The notes beneath the pieces were generated by a model. It was given only the letters and a program-made list of their open reading frames with translations. It ran no database searches and was not told where the DNA came from. This document shows, in pieces, positions 4,985 to 52,725 of a stretch of 64,000 bases of DNA. The position numbers and the translations under genes are program-made. How positions within the stretch are numbered: position 1 is the first letter of the stretch; every line of letters starts with the position of its first letter. The stretch covers positions 101 to 64,100 of the forward strand of contig JAUSEK010000001.1 in assembly GCA_030650275.1 (NCBI GenBank). The letters are read 5' to 3'. This DNA comes from Candidatus Omnitrophota bacterium. Its GTDB lineage: Bacteria > Omnitrophota > Gorgyraeia > Zapsychrales > Fredricksoniimonadaceae.

Positions 4985-5851
4985 TCAATAACGCATTGAA
5001 AACCCGCAAAATGGGTTTAAATCATCCGCGGCGGCCGTCGCGCCTATATTAATACCCATATCCAATTGTATATATTCGGTCAAAGCGTAGGTTAATCCGG
5101 CATCAACCGTTGCGACCAATTTTGCATCCTCTTCTGTGCTGATATGACTGAAGAATTCCACATAACCGCTTAGGCCGCCGACGATGGCGTGTCCAAAAGT
5201 AATAGAATGAATATATTCCCTATGATAGTTGTCATCCGATTTATTTTTATTAAGATCAACTTCAGCCATCAAACCCATATTCCACTCAGCGGCAAGCCCG
5301 ACAGCCAAGGGAACAATGATCCCGCCTTCCATATCGTCGTTACCAAAATGACCCCTATCAGTTGGAAATTTAATGAAAGGCATCAAGGCCAAAGCTGTCT
5401 GCCCGCCATCATTTCCCCATATATTGACCTTAAGACGGGTTTGCATATCCCCAAATCCTTCTTTGGTTGAGTGGACCCCGTCTTCTCTTGTTTTCTCATG
5501 GGCATAAGGATTAATGATCACTTGCAGATCCGCGTTATTTAAAAGTCCGATCTTAAAATTTGCAGGGGCGTAACTAAACGTATCAACGCGGGTTTGTGGT
5601 TCATCCGGGTTATGATGGTCATAGGCATGATCGATCAGGCTCATTTCTACCTGAACGTGGCCGGCATCAACGGTATAAGGACTTTCAGTTTTATCCGGAC
5701 GGTCTGTGCTCATCTCACGCATCAATTCAACCGGTGTCGGATGAAATAAATGGTATTGTTGCTTATTGGACACTGCTTGGTCAGCGGCTTGGGCTGAAAC
5801 GGCATGGAATAAAAATATCAGTAAGGCCAAAATTTGTTTGCGATGCATCAT
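4985..5851 (-). CDS. outer-membrane transporter family protein (MetA-pathway phenol-degradation-like)
   Basis: 288 aa; signal peptide MMHRKQILALLIFLFHAVSAQA, MSTDRP motif and C-terminal aromatic residue. Lower GC than neighbours. Confidence 0.55.
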   Translation of the reverse strand: MMHRKQILALLIFLFHAVSAQAADQAVSNKQQYHLFHPTPVELMREMSTDRPDKTESPYTVDAGHVQVEMSLIDHAYDHHNPDEPQTRVDTFSYAPANFKIGLLNNADLQVIINPYAHEKTREDGVHSTKEGFGDMQTRLKVNIWGNDGGQTALALMPFIKFPTDRGHFGNDDMEGGIIVPLAVGLAAEWNMGLMAEVDLNKNKSDDNYHREYIHSITFGHAIVGGLSGYVEFFSHISTEEDAKLVATVDAGLTYALTEYIQLDMGINIGATAAADDLNPFCGFSMRY

Positions 5852-9643: not shown

Positions 9644-10288
9644 ATGTCAAGAACGCTGCTGATCCAACAATACGAGCTCGGCCCCTTGAACAATTTCCTC
9701 TATTTGCTGGGCGATACGGCCACCAAAGAAATGGCGGTCGTGGACCCGGCCTGGGAGCCGGATTTCCTCTGTAACGAGGCCGAACGTCTGGGCTACCATA
9801 TCACCAAAATATTTTTGACCCATGGCCACCCTGACCATGTCAACGGCCTGGGTGGTGTTCTGCGCCGTCACAACGTTCCGGTCTATATTTCCAAGCACGA
9901 AGCGCTGTTTTTTCGTCCCAGATCCAAAAATCTGGTGGATGTCGTGGACAAAGAAAAACTTTCATTGGGGGATATCACCTTTGATGTCCTGCACGCGCCG
10001 GGGCATACGCCAGGATGCCAGCTCTTTTTGGCGCAAGGCCAATTGATCAGCGGGGATGTGCTTTTTATTGATGGATGCGGCCGCTGCGATCTTCCCGGCA
10101 GCGACCCGAGGGCCATGTACCGCTCCCTCACCAACGTCCTCATGAAACTGCCCGACGACACCGTGGTCCATCCGGGACACAATTACGGCCCCACCCCCAC
10201 CGACACCATCGGCCATCAGAAAAAAACCAACCCCTACCTGCAATGTTCCAGTATGGAAGAATTTCTAGGCGAGCGGATGGGTCTTTAA
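9644..10288 (+). CDS. MBL-fold metallo-hydrolase (glyoxalase II-like)
   Basis: THGHPDH (HxHxDH) motif and downstream His/Asp ligands. Start taken at MSRTLL; the upstream ORF-track start is a TTG. Confidence 0.8.
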   Translation: MSRTLLIQQYELGPLNNFLYLLGDTATKEMAVVDPAWEPDFLCNEAERLGYHITKIFLTHGHPDHVNGLGGVLRRHNVPVYISKHEALFFRPRSKNLVDVVDKEKLSLGDITFDVLHAPGHTPGCQLFLAQGQLISGDVLFIDGCGRCDLPGSDPRAMYRSLTNVLMKLPDDTVVHPGHNYGPTPTDTIGHQKKTNPYLQCSSMEEFLGERMGL

Positions 10289-10676
10289 AAAATCACTGGG
10301 GGAGAGTATTTCGATCTTTTTAAAATACCCTAAAGACAAAAGATGAGCATCACCTGAAACAATACAGTCAACGCCCGCACTCACAGCGCATTCAAGAATA
10401 CGGTTATCATCAGGATCATTCTTAATAACGGCAACTTTATGAGTGACAACCACCAGTTCAACGAGTTCAGAAAGTTCATGGGCTATCTGCTGTACAACAG
10501 AAACCGGTAGTCGAAACTTCTTATCGACCAGGACCTCCGCCAATTCCTTAAGGATATCTTGAGACAAAGCGATCCTGATTTTTCCCGAAATCCCCATATC
10601 CAGAATATCACGGCTTTTTCCGCCAAACATGATTGCCGAAATAAGAACATTTGTATCCAAAACTATCTTCAAACCA
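10265..10676 (-). CDS. PIN-domain toxin (VapC-like)
   Basis: KIVLDTNVLISA...D...D PIN motifs. Proposed TTG start, 7 nt after an AGGAAAGGG RBS, directly follows the antitoxin stop. Confidence 0.75.
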
Positions 10677-10919
10677 TTACCCTTTCCTGAGGCGATAATC
10701 GGCAATGGCCCCGGCAATGTCCTTTTCCTTTAACCCGACCGCTTTAACATGTTGCCTGGTTGACCGAAAAATCCCTTTCCACACGCGTTTTTTGGCAATG
10801 TACGCCCGCGCCGCTTCCCGGATAAACTCGGAGCGGCTGCGCGCCTCCTCGCGGCTGACAGAATCGATATCCCGCAAAAGCTCATCTGAAAATGAAATAT
10901 TCACTGTCTGCGTTTTCAT
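10677..10919 (-). CDS. ribbon-helix-helix (CopG-like) antitoxin
   Basis: 81 aa from MKTQTVNISFSDELLRDID. Strong GGGAGGTG RBS. Immediately upstream of the PIN gene. Confidence 0.65.
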   Translation of the reverse strand: MKTQTVNISFSDELLRDIDSVSREEARSRSEFIREAARAYIAKKRVWKGIFRSTRQHVKAVGLKEKDIAGAIADYRLRKG

Positions 10920-10938
10920 ATCTTCACCTCCCAATACA

Positions 10939-10967
10939 AGTATATACAAACTTTGTATATAATGCAA
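10939..10967 (-). promoter_or_regulatory. promoter of the toxin-antitoxin operon (TTGCAT-17-TATACT) with embedded 21-bp palindrome TATATACAAAGTTTGTATATA (10941-10961)
   Basis: Hexamers and spacing read on the minus strand. A perfect palindrome overlapping the spacer and -10 is typical of an autoregulated antitoxin operator. Confidence 0.45.
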
Positions 10968-11010
10968 GGTCAATAATCAAAAAATTTGTAATAAGTTAGC
11001 TCTAAAAACG

Positions 11011-45296: not shown

Positions 45297-46180
45297 TTAT
45301 CCCCTGGGATGAAACTGTTTGTGCACGCTCTTGAGCCGCTCTTTGTCCACGTGCGTGTAAATTTGCGTCGTGGCGATGTCCGCGTGGCCGAGCATTTCCT
45401 GCACAGAGCGCAGATCCGCGCCATGTTCCAGCAAATGGGTGGCGAAGGTATGCCTCAACGTGTGCGGCTTGATGTTCTTTTTGATGCCCGCCAGCCGCGC
45501 GTATTGCTTGATGATCTTCCAGGCCATGACCCGCGACATCTTTTTGCCCTGCTGGCTTAAGAAAAGCGCGTCGCTTTCCGTGGTTTTCAATGATCTGGGA
45601 CGGATGTGTCCGCAATAATAGGCAATGGCTTCCCGCGCTTTCCTGCCGACGGGAATGATGCGCTCCTTGCTGCCTTTGCCGATGGCGCGCACAAAGCCGG
45701 CTTCCAAATTAACGCTGGCGACCTTCAGGTCCACCATTTCCGAAACGCGCATGCCGGAGGCGTAAAAAAGTTCCAGCATCGCGTAATCGCGTTTATGATT
45801 TTTTCCCTTGGTCTGCGCCGCCCGCAGGATCGCTTCCATCTCTTTTTGCGTCAATACCTCGGGGATCCGCGCCCATTGTTTGGGCGTATCCACCAGGGAA
45901 GTCGGATCTTCCTTAGCCAGGCCGTCGCGCACCAGAAAACGGTGGAACATTTTGACGGCGGCCAGGTTCCTGCAAATACTGGACGTGGAGAGGCCCGACT
46001 TCTTGAGTGTTTGCAAAAAACCGGTGATATGCTCCGAACGGACAGTGTCCGCATTTTTGACGCCCTGGCCGGCCAATAATTTTACATATTTTTCCAGGTC
46101 CAGCCGGTAGGCCGCAAGCGTGTTCTTTGCCAGACCGCGCTCAACGGAAATATAGTTGATGAATTCACCGATGAATTCCT

Positions 46181-46184
<4 letters not shown>
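45297..46184 (-). CDS. xerD: site-specific tyrosine recombinase XerC/XerD
   Basis: R...HxLRHTFATHLLEHGADLRSVQEMLGH...Y catalytic tetrad region; 295 aa. Confidence 0.85.
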
Positions 46185-48792
<2,608 letters not shown>

Positions 48793-48807
48793 ATCATATA
48801 TCTGATT

Positions 48808-48836
48808 ATTTTAACATCCCGACGGTATTCCGTCAA
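48808..48836 (-). promoter_or_regulatory. candidate tRNA-Pro promoter TTGACG-17-TAAAAT
   Basis: Hexamers read on the minus strand about 15 nt upstream of the mature tRNA 5' end. Confidence 0.4.
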
Positions 48837-49079
48837 TCCTTTGTGGGGTGTTGCGCATCTCGTGCGCAAGCCTAACCTGCTCATTGCAAAAGATATGGGC
48901 GGTATCCGGACGCTTCCTTTGCGGTAAACGCCCATACGCCCTCCCGTCTAAATGTCCGTCATTTTAAATGTTTTTGGGGGAAATATTTTGTTCAACCGAC
49001 CGGGGAAATCGGCTACTACACCTATATACTAATATAAAACCAGAACCTGTCAATTGTTCTTGTGACGCCATTTGTTCTT

Positions 49080-50291
49080 TCAACTTTCACTAACTCTAAA
49101 AGATCGTATTGAATTTATCTTTTCGTTTATTTTAAATGTATGCTCATCAAGATCGTTAACAAATTCCTCAATGCTATCTAATTCTTCATCTGTAAAGCTG
49201 CGGTGTTCATATCGCAACATTCCATTGATGAGTCCCAAGAGATCACTAAACCCATGTCTTTGATACGGCTCTAGCAACCTATCTTCGGCTTTTCTTTGCC
49301 AAAACATGTATGGGGGATTCTTTTTCTTGCTCAAGCTTATTTTTGCAGTACTTAACGCGTTGGTGAGGCGCCCGACCCTGAAAAGCACATAGAAAATAAT
49401 GTAACTGACACAATAATATTCCTTGTCTCTGCTAAGTCGGGTGAGCAATGCTTGAACGAATAATTCTCCGTCTTTCTCATCCCTGAAAGATTTAAATAAC
49501 TTAACTAATGCATCGCCGTTCTCAGACTGCACAGTTGCCCCTTGGGGATCATTTAATATTTCTTGCCGCTCTCCAGATTTACTACTCGTCCAACTATCCT
49601 GATAGATGCTTTTAATTTGTCTCCCTTGGCATAATGCGTATATACTACCCAACTCTCCTGATTGACGCCCGTATTTTTGATAACGACTAATTTCATCCTT
49701 AAGAGTAGCTGCCACTTTTCTTTCTATTTGATTTTGTAACTTATAGATTGCTTCCTCTGTTAATTTAATAGGTATAAATCTTTTCTTTTTATCTGATTTA
49801 AATTCAACGTTCTTTAGAATGCGTTTCTGTCCATATTGATCTACGAAAATTATGTCTGCTTTGAAATCCTTCCCTTCCTTGCAAAATGGTGGGCAAATCC
49901 AGAAATCTGCGTGTAGGTCGGTAGTCGCGCGTGGAGGAATAGGGTAGTCTCCGTGATATTCACTGTGCACATCTTTAAGCGATACATGTCCTTGATTTCT
50001 AGGCTTCTTGATGTAAACGTTTAAGATGCTAATCGGTTGGTCTGTTGGATTTGTTACGTACCAATAACCCACTATCTGCATGGCGGGTTTTTGATCACCG
50101 GTGCTCCCCATGTGCCACCAGTTAAATCTGTAATGAGGAAGGATGATTGGACGGTTTAGCCAATGCCTTATCCATGGGAATATGGCCCCTAATTTCTCCA
50201 ATATACTGTTCAGCGATGCCAAAGATTGACTGAGTATTCGAGCCCAAAACTTTACATCGCTATCTGTGTTTAAGTTATTATTTTGAGTCAT
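49080..50291 (-). CDS. orphan hypothetical protein (403 aa) in low-GC island
   Basis: Clean 403-codon ORF with GC of roughly 42% by eye versus about 58% in the flanks. No motif I can place; N-terminal half beta-rich, C-terminal half helical. Confidence 0.6.
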   Translation of the reverse strand: MTQNNNLNTDSDVKFWARILSQSLASLNSILEKLGAIFPWIRHWLNRPIILPHYRFNWWHMGSTGDQKPAMQIVGYWYVTNPTDQPISILNVYIKKPRNQGHVSLKDVHSEYHGDYPIPPRATTDLHADFWICPPFCKEGKDFKADIIFVDQYGQKRILKNVEFKSDKKKRFIPIKLTEEAIYKLQNQIERKVAATLKDEISRYQKYGRQSGELGSIYALCQGRQIKSIYQDSWTSSKSGERQEILNDPQGATVQSENGDALVKLFKSFRDEKDGELFVQALLTRLSRDKEYYCVSYIIFYVLFRVGRLTNALSTAKISLSKKKNPPYMFWQRKAEDRLLEPYQRHGFSDLLGLINGMLRYEHRSFTDEELDSIEEFVNDLDEHTFKINEKINSIRSFRVSES

Positions 50292-50554
50292 TCCGCCTTT
50301 AGTTCTTTGAACCGTTTCCAGGTATCTTATTTATTCGCTAATGATTCTGATGAAATGTACCCATTATGCCAGAAACAAAAACCCTCCGCAATTCATTAAA
50401 ATCGCATGGGTTTATATACAAATAGCCTCAAATCTAATTCAAATTCTGTCCTCCCAAGTACCGGTTCTGCCTCCATTGCCTAACATTGAATTGTTCAAAA
50501 ATAAATCCTCCCCGTCCTTACCCTATTCTCTCCTCTCCCATGTCGCAAGGGGTA

Positions 50555-50611
50555 GTTCAAGACCCCACTCACTCATAAAAAACTTATAGTAGAGTGTGTG
50601 GGGTCTTGAAC
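50555..50611. repeat. 20-bp inverted repeat (GTTCAAGACCCCACTCACTC / GAGTGTGTGGGGTCTTGAAC) with 17-bp AT-rich spacer
   Basis: Arms are reverse complements with a single mismatch; read directly. Confidence 0.55.
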
Positions 50612-50659
50612 GGTTTTGAGCGCTTTTGCCCAAAAACCCCGTGCAAATGGGAGAAAAAA

Positions 50660-50734
50660 GGGCACAAATTAGGCACAGATTTGTGCCTGATCTGTGCCCA
50701 AACTTGCGCCCTTGTTTGTGCCTAATCTGTGTCT
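50660..50734. repeat. array of GGCACA / TGTGCC heptamers forming nested palindromes
   Basis: At least six copies of the (A/G)GGCACA core in both orientations within 75 bp: GGGCACA, AGGCACA, TGTGCCT, TGTGCCC, then TGTGCCT-AATC-TGTGTCT. Confidence 0.55.
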
Positions 50735-51081
50735 ATTTTAGACTATAGCTCAAAGAAATAGTACCTACGATTATCTTTTTACATAACGAATTAGTAGGCC
50801 AACCCTTCTCCAGTCCGTATTTGAAGGTTAAGCGCCACACTTGTTGTTAAACAAGCAGAAACAAGCACTACGAGTACCTTTATACGCAACCTGGCCTTTA
50901 CACGGCTCACCACCTCTATGCCACAGTTCAGTTGAGGATTTTGCATGTTGCCCTCTCCTTTCCCGGACTGCGGAAGGGTTGGCGCTTGGCGATGTGCCAT
51001 TTATAGAATTTTAATGTTGTGAAAAGGGCTTTTGTCGAATTTCGAACCCGATGTCGGACATACGCAACGAAAATGCAATTC

Positions 51082-51492
51082 TTAGGGCTTTATCATCTGT
51101 TTTGTTTTTTGGATAACCTGGCTGACAAAAGCAATATAATCATCCGCTTCTTTCTTGGTGATCGTGCCGCCGGCATCGTAAAGGTCTTTATTACGCTTCA
51201 TCCGCATGGCATTGCCAACCGTAAAGACATCTGGATCGCCTAGAATTTCACTCAACTTAAGTAATATCTTAACATGATGCCCGGTCACGCTCCTGACCTT
51301 AACCCCGCCCTTCTTTGCCAAAATAGCCATGCCGATCTTGATCAATGCCTGATAACAATAGGTAAATTGGACTTCCCTAAAATGGTCTTTCTGGGCAATA
51401 TCCAGATCACGCATGGCGCTTTCAACATAACGGTCAATTTGGGCCGCCGTAAATTTAAACTTCTGAAAGAACTCCTGTTCAAATGAGATCAT
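51082..51492 (-). CDS. HEPN-domain protein (toxin partner of nucleotidyltransferase)
   Basis: 136 aa helical protein with R-x4-HH (RSVTGHH). Overlaps the upstream MNT gene by 4 bp (ATGA). Confidence 0.65.
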   Translation of the reverse strand: MISFEQEFFQKFKFTAAQIDRYVESAMRDLDIAQKDHFREVQFTYCYQALIKIGMAILAKKGGVKVRSVTGHHVKILLKLSEILGDPDVFTVGNAMRMKRNKDLYDAGGTITKKEADDYIAFVSQVIQKTKQMIKP

Positions 51493-52031
51493 ATGATCCT
51501 CACGGTTTTCTTGGATTCAATAGACTTTAAAAACGGATCCTTCCCTTTTTTATCATTGTACTCCTGAAGCGACATACTGACGGCATTAATGTCTCTTTGG
51601 GTAGACTTTTGCACCTGTGCAACCGCCTTTTGAAGTTCTACGGTACTATGATCTCCAACAACCAAAAAATCAATGTCGCTATGGGAATCCATCTTCTCCT
51701 GGGCATAGGAACCAAAAATAACGGCTTTTTTAATACCAGAAATAGTGCCAAGTGAAGTCTTTAATACCTGCTCCAGACCAATGGTCTTTAAAACGATGTT
51801 TTTATACTCCTTTAACAACGGAAAGCTCTTATTTAACGAATAATACCGCTGTTTGCCCTGCCAGCGGCTTTTTAAGAGGCCCTCTTTTTCAAGGACGATC
51901 AGTTTACGGGTCAAATTACCGCTCTCTGTATGGAGGATCCGGGCTAGGTCATTGACATAAACCTCAAACCCTTGTTGCAGCATGAAATAATTGAGGATTT
52001 GTTGAGAAACTTTAGAGCGCAGGCTGATCAT
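51489..52031 (-). CDS. minimal nucleotidyltransferase (MNT) with N-terminal winged-HTH
   Basis: GSYAQEKMDSHSDIDFLVV (GS...DxD) pol-beta NTase motif preceded by a wHTH-like segment; 180 aa. Confidence 0.75.
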   Translation of the reverse strand: MISLRSKVSQQILNYFMLQQGFEVYVNDLARILHTESGNLTRKLIVLEKEGLLKSRWQGKQRYYSLNKSFPLLKEYKNIVLKTIGLEQVLKTSLGTISGIKKAVIFGSYAQEKMDSHSDIDFLVVGDHSTVELQKAVAQVQKSTQRDINAVSMSLQEYNDKKGKDPFLKSIESKKTVRII

Positions 52032-52054
52032 AGGAATTGCCTCACTGTGTTGAT

Positions 52055-52082
52055 TTACAGTGATTACTGTAAATTATTACAG
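52055..52082 (-). promoter_or_regulatory. overlapping palindromes TTTACAGT-GATT-ACTGTAAA and CTGTAA-ATTA-TTACAG upstream of the MNT-HEPN operon (candidate operator)
   Basis: Perfect inverted repeats 24-51 bp upstream of the MNT start codon. Confidence 0.4.
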
Positions 52083-52139
52083 CAATGGAGTCAATATTTT
52101 TATCAATTTTTGGTATCCCAAAGACATCTAACTTATTTA

Positions 52140-52194
52140 TGCACAAAACAACAAATAAATATGCACAGATCGACATAATCTTTTGCACAAATCG
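52140..52194. repeat. three direct repeats TGCACA(A/G)A(A/T)C spaced 22-23 bp
   Basis: TGCACAAAAC (52140), TGCACAGATC (52162) and TGCACAAATC (52185). Core resembles the GGCACA(A/G)AT heptamers at 50660-50680. Confidence 0.45.
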
Positions 52195-52290
52195 ATATGG
52201 TTTTTGGTGTCCAAAAAGTGTCCAAGTTTAATGCAGATTGGTTAAAACTGAATAAAAATGATTAAAAAGGTCTCGCTTTAGGACAAGTTT

Positions 52291-52725
52291 TCATACCTCT
52301 TTGATCCCGAGGCCGATCTCGGCTTCGGCGACAAGTTTGTCCCCCACCCTGACCTCGGCGCGGATGATGCCGGTCTTGGGTAAAAGTTTCACGGAAGAGA
52401 CCTCAATGCGCAACTGGTCACCGGGGACCACGGGATGGTGAAAACGCGCATCGATCTTGGCCAGATGATAAACCAGGTCCTTGCCCTGCAAATCTTTACT
52501 GTAATAAAAATAGACGCAACCCGCCTGGGTCATGGCTTCAATGATCAGCACGCCGGGCATGATCTTTTCACCCGGGAAATGCCCCTGAAAAAATTGTTCA
52601 TTGATCGAAACGTTCTTCACAGCGGTCAACTTCTGATCGGGGACGCACTCAACGACCTTGTCGATCATCAGGAACGGATAACGATGAGGGATTATTTTCT
52701 GGATCTCTAAAATATCTAAAATCAT
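52291..52725 (-). CDS. fabZ: 3-hydroxyacyl-ACP dehydratase FabZ
   Basis: PHRYPFLMIDKV and GHFPG hot-dog fold motifs; 144 aa; AAGGAGAG RBS. Confidence 0.9.
   Translation of the reverse strand: MILDILEIQKIIPHRYPFLMIDKVVECVPDQKLTAVKNVSINEQFFQGHFPGEKIMPGVLIIEAMTQAGCVYFYYSKDLQGKDLVYHLAKIDARFHHPVVPGDQLRIEVSSVKLLPKTGIIRAEVRVGDKLVAEAEIGLGIKEV

Follow-up and report, generated by a model that had tools for sequence, protein, structure and literature searches.

What occupies the gap between fabZ and the proline tRNA gene in a genome of Candidatus Omnitrophota, and did it arrive as one system or as several? The locus lies in a stretch of 64,000 nucleotides (hereafter the window) from contig JAUSEK010000001.1 of assembly GCA_030650275.1. 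Here, some 3.5 kb of low-GC DNA (the island) carries a 403-amino-acid (403-aa) protein of an uncharacterized family, a gene pair for a minimal nucleotidyltransferase (MNT) and a HEPN-like protein, and several small repeated or structured elements. An earlier note, made from the letters of the DNA, had read the island as a horizontally acquired defense or mobile cassette. Foreign and acquired it is, but it appears as a mosaic of independent modules and not as one cassette or one system. We regard it as probably a composite defense and toxin–antitoxin (TA) islet, horizontally acquired, whose modules moved independently of one another and came to rest at a permissive site between fabZ and tRNA-Pro.

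The foreign character of the island is first of all evident from its composition. Its GC (guanine plus cytosine) content is 0.406 as compared with 0.547 in the rest of the window, i.e., about 7.5 standard deviations (SD) under the other non-overlapping 3.5-kb windows across the 64 kb (mean 0.547, SD 0.019, minimum 0.494). The same coordinates show the largest tetranucleotide deviation of the window (L1 distance 0.50 vs a median of 0.16). At third codon positions the GC content (GC3) amounts to 0.63–0.70 in ligA, fabZ, ribE, ribD, and xerD, 0.48 and 0.51 in the MNT and HEPN genes, respectively, and 0.38 in the gene for the 403-aa protein. The GC drop over about 3.5 kb next to a tRNA gene, which had been noticed by eye, is thus real, and the GC3 and k-mer profiles agree with it.

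The flanking genes, on the other hand, are housekeeping genes, as had also been supposed: fabZ, ribE, ribD, ligA, and xerD stand in the gene order PHP-ribD-ribE-fabZ-tRNAPro-ligA-lipoprotein-xerD that is found across Omnitrophota. The flanking genes and all three open reading frames (ORFs) of the island share the minus strand. A synteny comparison, which had been proposed as a check, finds the same junction without the island in three related lineages (L014, L018, and L011), where fabZ and tRNA-Pro are only 81–141 bp apart, and with unrelated cargo in four other loci. Judging from the translations, this cargo comprises two membrane proteins in L007, a multi-pass one of 602 aa and another of 339 aa; in L008, two small ORFs and after them a protein resembling response regulators, one resembling histidine kinases, and one of 1021 aa; and in L010, a 576-aa ORF resembling PEP-utilizing enzymes. 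The fourth filled gap is that of L012. Similarity between the window and other Omnitrophota genomes ends exactly at the 5′ end of tRNA-Pro, at position 48793. This junction is thus recurrently variable and permissive, and the content found there in the window is an insertion; by composition, the island is foreign DNA inserted between fabZ and tRNA-Pro. The locus also documents a permissive insertion site 5′ of tRNA-Pro in Omnitrophota, a group in which, to our knowledge, there is almost no experimental genetics.

Islands and prophages integrated at tRNA genes deviate in composition and are missing from related genomes, and both features are found here. They also encode an integrase at their edge and lie at the 3′ end of the tRNA, bounded by a direct repeat of its 3′ segment. 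In these respects a classical tRNA-targeted integrated element is not supported, because the tRNA is intact and has the island on its 5′ side, a Pfam scan and the ORF list of 48794–52290 contain no tyrosine or serine recombinase or integrase, and a repeat search found no tRNA-derived direct repeat bounding the island. The xerD gene (45297–46184) is a housekeeping gene, syntenic in all Omnitrophota loci compared. As a side observation on this boundary, the longest ligA ORF (46701–48792 region, with a GTG at 48743) overlaps tRNA-Pro by 28 nucleotides (nt), and it does so in L014 as well; the true ligA start probably lies further downstream than this GTG.

That the modules are independent of each other is supported by four lines of evidence: they do not co-occur elsewhere, they differ in GC3, a terminator-like hairpin lies between them, and a 19-nt repeat surrounds the 403-aa ORF. 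With respect to co-occurrence, no MNT-HEPN pair was found in 21 other loci of the 403-aa family and no family member in eight other MNT-HEPN loci. The hairpin, which is followed by a U-run, sits about 75 nt upstream of the 403-aa start codon, separating upstream transcription from the gene; a consensus terminator scan had missed it because of its bulges. The 19-nt imperfect direct repeat, GTT[C/G]AAAGAAC[T/A]AA[A/T]GGCG, brackets the 403-aa ORF exactly, and its 16/19 match compares with at most 14 in 100 local shuffles. It is absent around 403-aa homologues in 10 other loci, and the pair of copies may be an insertion scar. The coordinates of all these features are collected in Table 1.

Table 1. 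Features of the island and its borders (window coordinates; strand "." where none applies)
Feature	Position	Strand	Evidence or remark
Low-GC inserted islet between fabZ and tRNA-Pro	48794–52290	.	GC, tetranucleotides, synteny
tRNA-Pro(CGG), downstream boundary of the island	48716–48792	-	ARAGORN; Rfam tRNA, 65.8 bits
19-nt imperfect direct repeat, downstream copy	49066–49084	-	16/19 match; overlaps the 403-aa stop codon
403-aa protein, uncharacterized widespread family, candidate stand-alone defense protein	49080–50291	-	
19-nt repeat, upstream copy	50294–50312	-	GTTCAAAGAACTAAAGGCG; includes the 403-aa ribosome-binding site
Terminator-like hairpin, then U-run	50366–50410	-	CCCAUGCGAUUUUAAUGAAUUGCGGAGGG-UUUUUGUUU; read from the sequence; minimum-free-energy fold
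Three-way-junction element (about 125 nt), no known family	50535–50654	-	L078 copy; consensus pairing
GGCACA/TGTGCC iterons, six half-sites in three pairs	50655–50739	.	repeat search
Fold-back element with small ORF (about 210 nt)	50795–51003	-	inverted-repeat search; L112 homologue
HEPN-like protein, 136 aa, PDC-M05B component	51082–51492	-	
Winged helix-turn-helix (wHTH; ArsR/MarR-like) plus minimal nucleotidyltransferase, 180 aa, PDC-M05A component	51489–52031	-	
MNT-HEPN promoter and operator	52040–52094	-	promoter scan
Upstream repeats of MNT: three ATYTGTGCA sites and TGGACAC tandem	52141–52227	.	
fabZ ORF	52291–52725	-	FabA-like domain, 8.7e-31

As such, the island is ordinary: defense islets of this kind are common, and its MNT-HEPN pair is already catalogued. 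The most promising lead for something undescribed is the 403-aa gene, in line with the earlier note, which had called its product an orphan. That label holds insofar as the protein belongs to no curated family, with no match among the Pfam, NCBIfam, PHROGs, and PADLOC models, but it does not hold with regard to relatives. There are 73 homologues at 47–92% identity in several phyla, among them sequences from Thiodiazotropha, Nitrospirota, and Emcibacter. A profile search against sequences clustered at 50% identity retrieved 745 cluster representatives, with 121 at E ≤ 1e-30. Between phyla (Gammaproteobacteria, Alphaproteobacteria, Nitrospirota, and Omnitrophota) the identity reaches 57–69%, whereas LigA proteins recovered from the more distant Omnitrophota lineages are 50–58% identical to each other. 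The protein is thus better conserved across phyla than LigA is between these lineages of one phylum, which suggests that it has spread horizontally while being strongly constrained. A profile search of the PDB gave only spurious nanobody matches, which are due to a YYC motif.

The predicted fold of the 403-aa protein consists of an N-terminal helix, an Ig-like β-sandwich, and a HEAT/VHS-like helical domain. What precedes the conserved part differs among family members. Of 125 full-length sequences, 80 (about 64%) carry one or two hydrophobic or transmembrane (TM) segments at the N-terminus, while one (P0137) has a TIR domain in place of the TM part, matching ThsB at 1e-37 and the TIR part of PDC-S66 at 1e-60. 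This TIR domain appears to keep the catalytic-type glutamate, in the motif RREL. In the window copy the N-terminus forms an amphipathic helix. TIR domains are cytoplasmic, and the shared module of the family would therefore be cytoplasmic as well.

The genomic contexts of the family are all different and no partner gene is conserved. TA and defense genes recur among the neighbors. For example, HigBA and PemK flank the homologue in L004, and VapBC adjoins the TIR form. HEC-08 lies directly upstream of the homologue in L060 and a PDC-S37-like helicase-nuclease directly downstream of that in L066. Among 81 neighbors of homologues we further found PDC-S19 (3e-131), PD-Lambda-3_B (3e-115), DrmC, HerA, and SoFic.

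A sizeable family without a curated model that swaps domains and resides in such neighborhoods bears the usual signature of immune genes. Interchangeable TM and TIR effectors are known from defense proteins such as PycTM/PycTIR, the 2TM and TIR-SAVED effectors of CBASS, and ThsB-type TIR proteins. The 403-aa family resembles these in placing a conserved C-terminal module behind TM segments, a ThsB-like TIR domain, or an amphipathic helix, and in its TA and defense neighborhoods; it differs from them in that its module matches no known sensor domain and is not accompanied by a signal-generating enzyme. We therefore tentatively propose, at somewhat less than even confidence, that the 403-aa protein is a single-gene sensor-plus-effector defense protein stemming from a separately acquired cassette of 1.2 kb. 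Its conserved module would act as a cytoplasmic sensor or binding unit and its N-terminus as the effector, perturbing the membrane or depleting NAD+, which would amount to a single-gene defense of the abortive-infection type.

Several observations count against this proposal. The window copy has no clear TM helix, and among the family sequences examined there is a single TIR fusion. The folds are generic (an Ig-like sandwich and a helical repeat) and include no catalytic domain. No established family links the protein to defense, and in a PADLOC-DB v2 scan of 77 family members only the TIR domain of P0137 matched defense models, the shared module none. The count of defense neighbors comes without a matched background control. 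Moreover, searches of IMG/VR, INPHARED, and PLSDB returned no member of the family, which is in itself neutral on function. Several of these points would equally suit a protein that has no role in defense, e.g., a membrane-associated scaffold or adaptor that hitch-hikes in variable regions: its folds are of the binding type and lack an enzymatic domain, most contexts of its homologues include ordinary metabolic genes, and no known defense model matches the protein itself. We consider such an accessory function rather unlikely, although a serious contender, in view of the patchy distribution across phyla at high identity, the very low GC3 in this host, the swappable effector-like N-terminal parts (TM or TIR), and the recurrent adjacency to TA and defense genes.

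The second module is better charted. The nucleotidyltransferase–HEPN pair that had been recognized in the translations is indeed present, and hidden Markov models (HMMs) of PADLOC assign it to PDC-M05: the MNT protein matches PDC-M05A (PDLC04368) at 1.1e-39 over residues 4–180, and the HEPN-like protein matches PDC-M05B (PDLC04379) at 4.3e-13. The two ORFs overlap by 4 nt. In Pfam, MNT is recognized by NTP_transf_2 (2.2e-9) and Polbeta (8.7e-9), and in NCBIfam it has matches below the cut-off to an ArsR-type helix-turn-helix (HTH) (2.7e-8) and to MntA (8.5e-7; 28.8 bits vs a cut-off of 60). Its translation contains the motif GS-X10-DID (G107-S108-X10-D119-I-D121). The HEPN-like protein stays below the cut-off of Pfam HEPN (E = 0.011; 16.3 bits vs 22), and sequence searches returned no solved structural relatives of either protein.

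In PMC12988326 and PMC12881386, PDC-M05 is described as a candidate pair of a nucleotidyltransferase and a HEPN protein typical of TA modules, and PMC12881386 lists a representative of it among four candidates reported to protect Escherichia coli from one or more of three phages. The window pair shares with these descriptions the gene order, the 4-nt overlap, both HMMs, and the combination of an ArsR-like HTH with a KNTase-like nucleotidyltransferase, and it differs in nothing essential. By its sequence it is an ordinary and already catalogued member of PDC-M05.

How the pair would work can be drawn from type VII TA systems by analogy. According to PMC7641770, a HEPN toxin with an Rx4-6H RNase motif is AMPylated by its MNT antitoxin. 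As in the HepT/MntA systems described there and in PMC11586414, an MNT with a GS-X10-DxD motif lies immediately upstream of, and is translationally coupled to, a small HEPN-like protein; the differences are the extra N-terminal wHTH domain of the window MNT, the MntA and HEPN scores below their cut-offs, and the motif RNKDLY instead of Rx4-6H. The nucleotidyltransferase domain may thus neutralize or modify the HEPN-like partner, as MntA does with HepT. Speaking against a simple transfer of the mechanism, the HEPN-like protein has no canonical Rx4-6H, its sole candidate site being R100-N-K-D-L-Y105, and this RNKDLY is invariant in five homologues. A HepT-like RNase mechanism may therefore not apply, and given the low MntA and HEPN scores as well, RNase toxicity and AMPylation are only putative for the window pair.

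Close MNT homologues (54–100% identical) are abundant, several of them labeled Omnitrophota or Omnitrophica, and a 100%-identical match occurs on an NCBI Omnitrophota contig. The two-gene module recurs at unrelated loci. The L074 copy lies between metabolic genes, the L076 copy sits in a TA cluster adjoining a Y1 transposase and a reverse transcriptase, and another copy adjoins ParE and an IS3-type transposase. In several cases a tRNA gene is close by. A tRNA-Arg is located about 80 nt downstream of the module in L074/L075, a tRNA-like sequence (seen by eye and not called by ARAGORN) starts at the contig end after the module in L073, and in L078 a tRNA-Pro gene directly upstream of it is cut short, with only the 5′ half present (362–408; acceptor arm, D-arm, and anticodon loop). 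This proximity suggests either a history of tRNA-linked mobility or a preference for safe harbors; no recombinase was found.

In addition, the module travels with its own control region. The MNT promoter consists of a −35 box TTGACT (52094–52089) and a −10 box TACAGT (52071–52066), and two palindromes of the type CTGTAA-N4-TTACAG lie upstream of the gene at 52067–52082 and 52045–52060, so that the double palindrome overlaps the promoter. A comparison of the L073, L074/L075, L076, and L078 operators with that of the window (52094–52045) shows the same layout before the MNT start codon in every copy, namely TTGAC as the −35 box, CTGTAA-N4-TTACAG, six bases, and the second palindrome. The double palindrome is likely an autoregulatory operator bound by the wHTH domain of MNT, which would thereby repress its own operon. 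Descriptions of PDC-M05 in the accessible text of PMC12881386 and PMC12988326 make no mention of TTGAC with the double operator. Conserved as it is, this promoter and operator offers a handle on the regulation of an abundant candidate system.

The operator also explains part of the repeats that had been reported at 52055–52194, namely the palindromes at about 52055–52082. Both this cluster and the one reported at 50555–50734 are real and non-random, but they are not arrays of heptamers: what had looked like repeat arrays resolves into promoter and operator palindromes, phased iterons, a three-way junction, and a fold-back element with a small ORF. Further upstream of MNT, three ATYTGTGCA sites follow each other at about 20–22 nt, with a core identical to that of the 50655–50739 iterons, and a tandem TGGACAC-N4-TGGACAC occupies 52207–52224, as it does upstream of MNT in L078. 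The heptamer TGGACAC itself occurs 19 times in the whole window, where 6.2 occurrences are expected and none of 100 shuffles reaches 19. GCACARAT is concentrated in the island, which has six of the window's eight sites where about 0.3 would be expected by chance in 3.5 kb.

Two points weigh against the composite islet as a whole. First, the GCACARAT sites shared by the regions upstream of MNT and of the 403-aa gene could mean local co-regulation. Second, the closest genome, a metagenome-assembled contig with the best LigA match (JACPXN010000111, L006; 89% identical), breaks at the island edge and is thus uninformative on the presence of the island and on how recently it was acquired. As for this break itself, positions 1–46 of JACPXN010000111.1 place it at the ligA start, which is the boundary between tRNA and island, and it fits strain-level heterogeneity or repeats at that spot.

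Taken further, the shared sites could indicate one integrated multi-gene system in which the wHTH-bearing MNT uses GCACARAT to regulate both the 403-aa gene and the RNA elements in between. All genes indeed lie on the same strand, the GCACARAT/ATYTGTGCA sites occur both upstream of MNT (52141–52192) and upstream of the junction and the 403-aa gene (50655–50739), and the three-way junction also follows MNT-HEPN in L078. Yet the 403-aa gene is never seen with MNT-HEPN elsewhere, its GC3 differs, and the terminator-like hairpin stands in between. L078 has different iterons and then an unrelated 148-aa gene, and the conserved operator of MNT is CTGTAA-N4-TTACAG, not GCACARAT. We thus deem a single integrated system very unlikely and keep to a composite of independent modules.

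Between the two modules, 790 nt (50292–51081) that seem "non-coding" contain three distinct parts: the junction, the phased repeats, and the fold-back element. The junction joins the outer stem P1 to two hairpins, namely the short P2 and the 20-bp P3 (50555–50611), the latter with the conserved loop TAC(T/C)ATAAGTTT. A copy that is 81% identical occurs in L078, a groundwater contig, at 1736–1854, after its MNT-HEPN module. All 47 of 47 pairs form in both sequences, with five compensatory double changes and four to five wobble changes. Substitutions in paired columns never disrupt a pair, and the G-U pairs are valid on the gene-sense strand only. The 301 nt around the junction fold with z = −6.5. 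Its single-stranded form on the gene-sense strand would thus be what is under selection.

Rfam has no family that reaches its gathering score for either the junction or the fold-back element (best 27–29 bits vs thresholds of 45–80, all generic hairpin matches), so that the island holds two structured elements with compensatory changes that are absent from this database. With a covariance model of the junction, neither the window nor 44 other loci (537 kb) yielded another copy. Searching viral contigs with a 15-mer of the hairpin gave 28 matches, none with a palindromic partner, and these are attributed to chance. Integron attC sites follow the consensus R'' RYYYAAC ... R' GTTRRRY and have an IntI integrase nearby. 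The 50555–50611 hairpin was rejected as an attC site, its polarity being opposite (GTTCAAG...CTTGAAC) and IntI being absent; no integrase ORF was recognized in or adjoining the island by Pfam or in the ORF list. A possible tRNA remnant at 51030–51060 was supported by neither ARAGORN nor Rfam.

The iterons lie immediately upstream of the junction. Within each pair the half-sites are 11 nt apart, and an 18-nt palindrome at 50660–50699 surrounds a GATT spacer. At the same position L078 has the unrelated motif ACTACACGG, present three times in direct and once in inverted orientation. Iterons that differ between loci beside a hairpin that is conserved would suit an operator combined with a structured RNA as well as the remnant of a Rep-type origin.

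The latter leads to another reading, in which the island is a decayed tRNA-targeting integrative element, prophage, or small rolling-circle replicon, with iterons and hairpin as its former origin or oriT. The resemblance of iterons beside a conserved-loop hairpin to Rep-type origins speaks for it, as do the tRNA gene next to the island, the repeated location of MNT-HEPN beside tRNA genes (L074/L075, L073, and L078), and the IS3-type transposase, or Y1 transposase plus reverse transcriptase, near other MNT-HEPN copies. It is nonetheless unlikely in our opinion, as the island contains no integrase, Rep, relaxase, or phage gene and adjoins the 5′ side of an intact tRNA without a tRNA-derived direct repeat, and as XerD (45297–46184) is a syntenic housekeeping protein across the phylum. 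Furthermore, the 403-aa family and the hairpin have no relatives in viral contigs, nor does the 403-aa protein have a phage or plasmid match.

Returning to independent modules, the 403-aa family and the iteron/three-way-junction element can be combined into a joint proposal, which we put forward even more cautiously than the one on the 403-aa protein by itself. The former would be a widespread single-gene abortive-infection family with a new sensor module and interchangeable effectors (TM helices, a TIR domain, or an amphipathic helix), and the latter a new element, in the form of structured RNA or single-stranded DNA, that travels with PDC-M05. Between its two larger modules the island holds two small elements, the iteron-plus-three-way-junction element and a fold-back element with a putative small hydrophobic peptide that resembles a type I toxin. 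The leads worth pursuing are the family of the 403-aa protein and both structured elements.

The fold-back element contains a small ORF of 69 aa (50791–51000), or of 51 aa if an internal ATG (50946), which follows GGAGAG, is the start. In the predicted peptide a hydrophobic helix comes after a basic stretch, and the 5′ end of the element pairs with the 3′ end in a stem of 20 bp (50964–50983 with 50798–50817). A 71-aa homologue (P0343; 64% identical) is encoded in L112 directly after a DUF3800/PDC-M04A gene. In that locus (100–1174) the DUF3800 gene, which matches PADLOC PDC-M04A at 1.2e-17, is followed by the fold-back element and then by a strong terminator hairpin. PADLOC has no match for the small ORFs, e.g., as a second PDC-M04 component. 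The window and L112 copies share frame, Shine-Dalgarno-like sequence, hydrophobic segment, and stem, and their length changes preserve the frame. The consensus fold of the two sequences has 55 pairs with six compensatory changes, one of them in the 20-bp stem. Substitutions between these two known copies show no third-position bias, so the small ORF is only putatively coding.

Small hydrophobic toxins encoded by mRNAs that fold back 5′ to 3′ are typical of type I TA systems of the hok/sok type. By analogy, the fold-back element resembles such a toxin transcript in its putative peptide of about 51 aa, basic and then hydrophobic, its Shine-Dalgarno-like sequence, and its 20-bp 5′–3′ stem. It differs in having no similarity to any known toxin family, with two sequences known. 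A promoter scan found no convincing antisense promoter at the element, and no antisense RNA was identified there.

Two other patches of the window, both on the minus strand, may be mentioned. At 4985–5851, a patch with a GC content of 0.445 encodes a protein of 288 aa whose N-terminus resembles a signal peptide; a thiC-like and an inositol-monophosphatase-like ORF lie on either side. A second low-GC patch (0.46–0.47) at 10265–10973 contains a 150-aa PIN/VapC-like ORF that overlaps a 98-aa ORF resembling ribbon-helix-helix/CopG proteins and, judged by their translations, the two probably form a VapBC TA pair.

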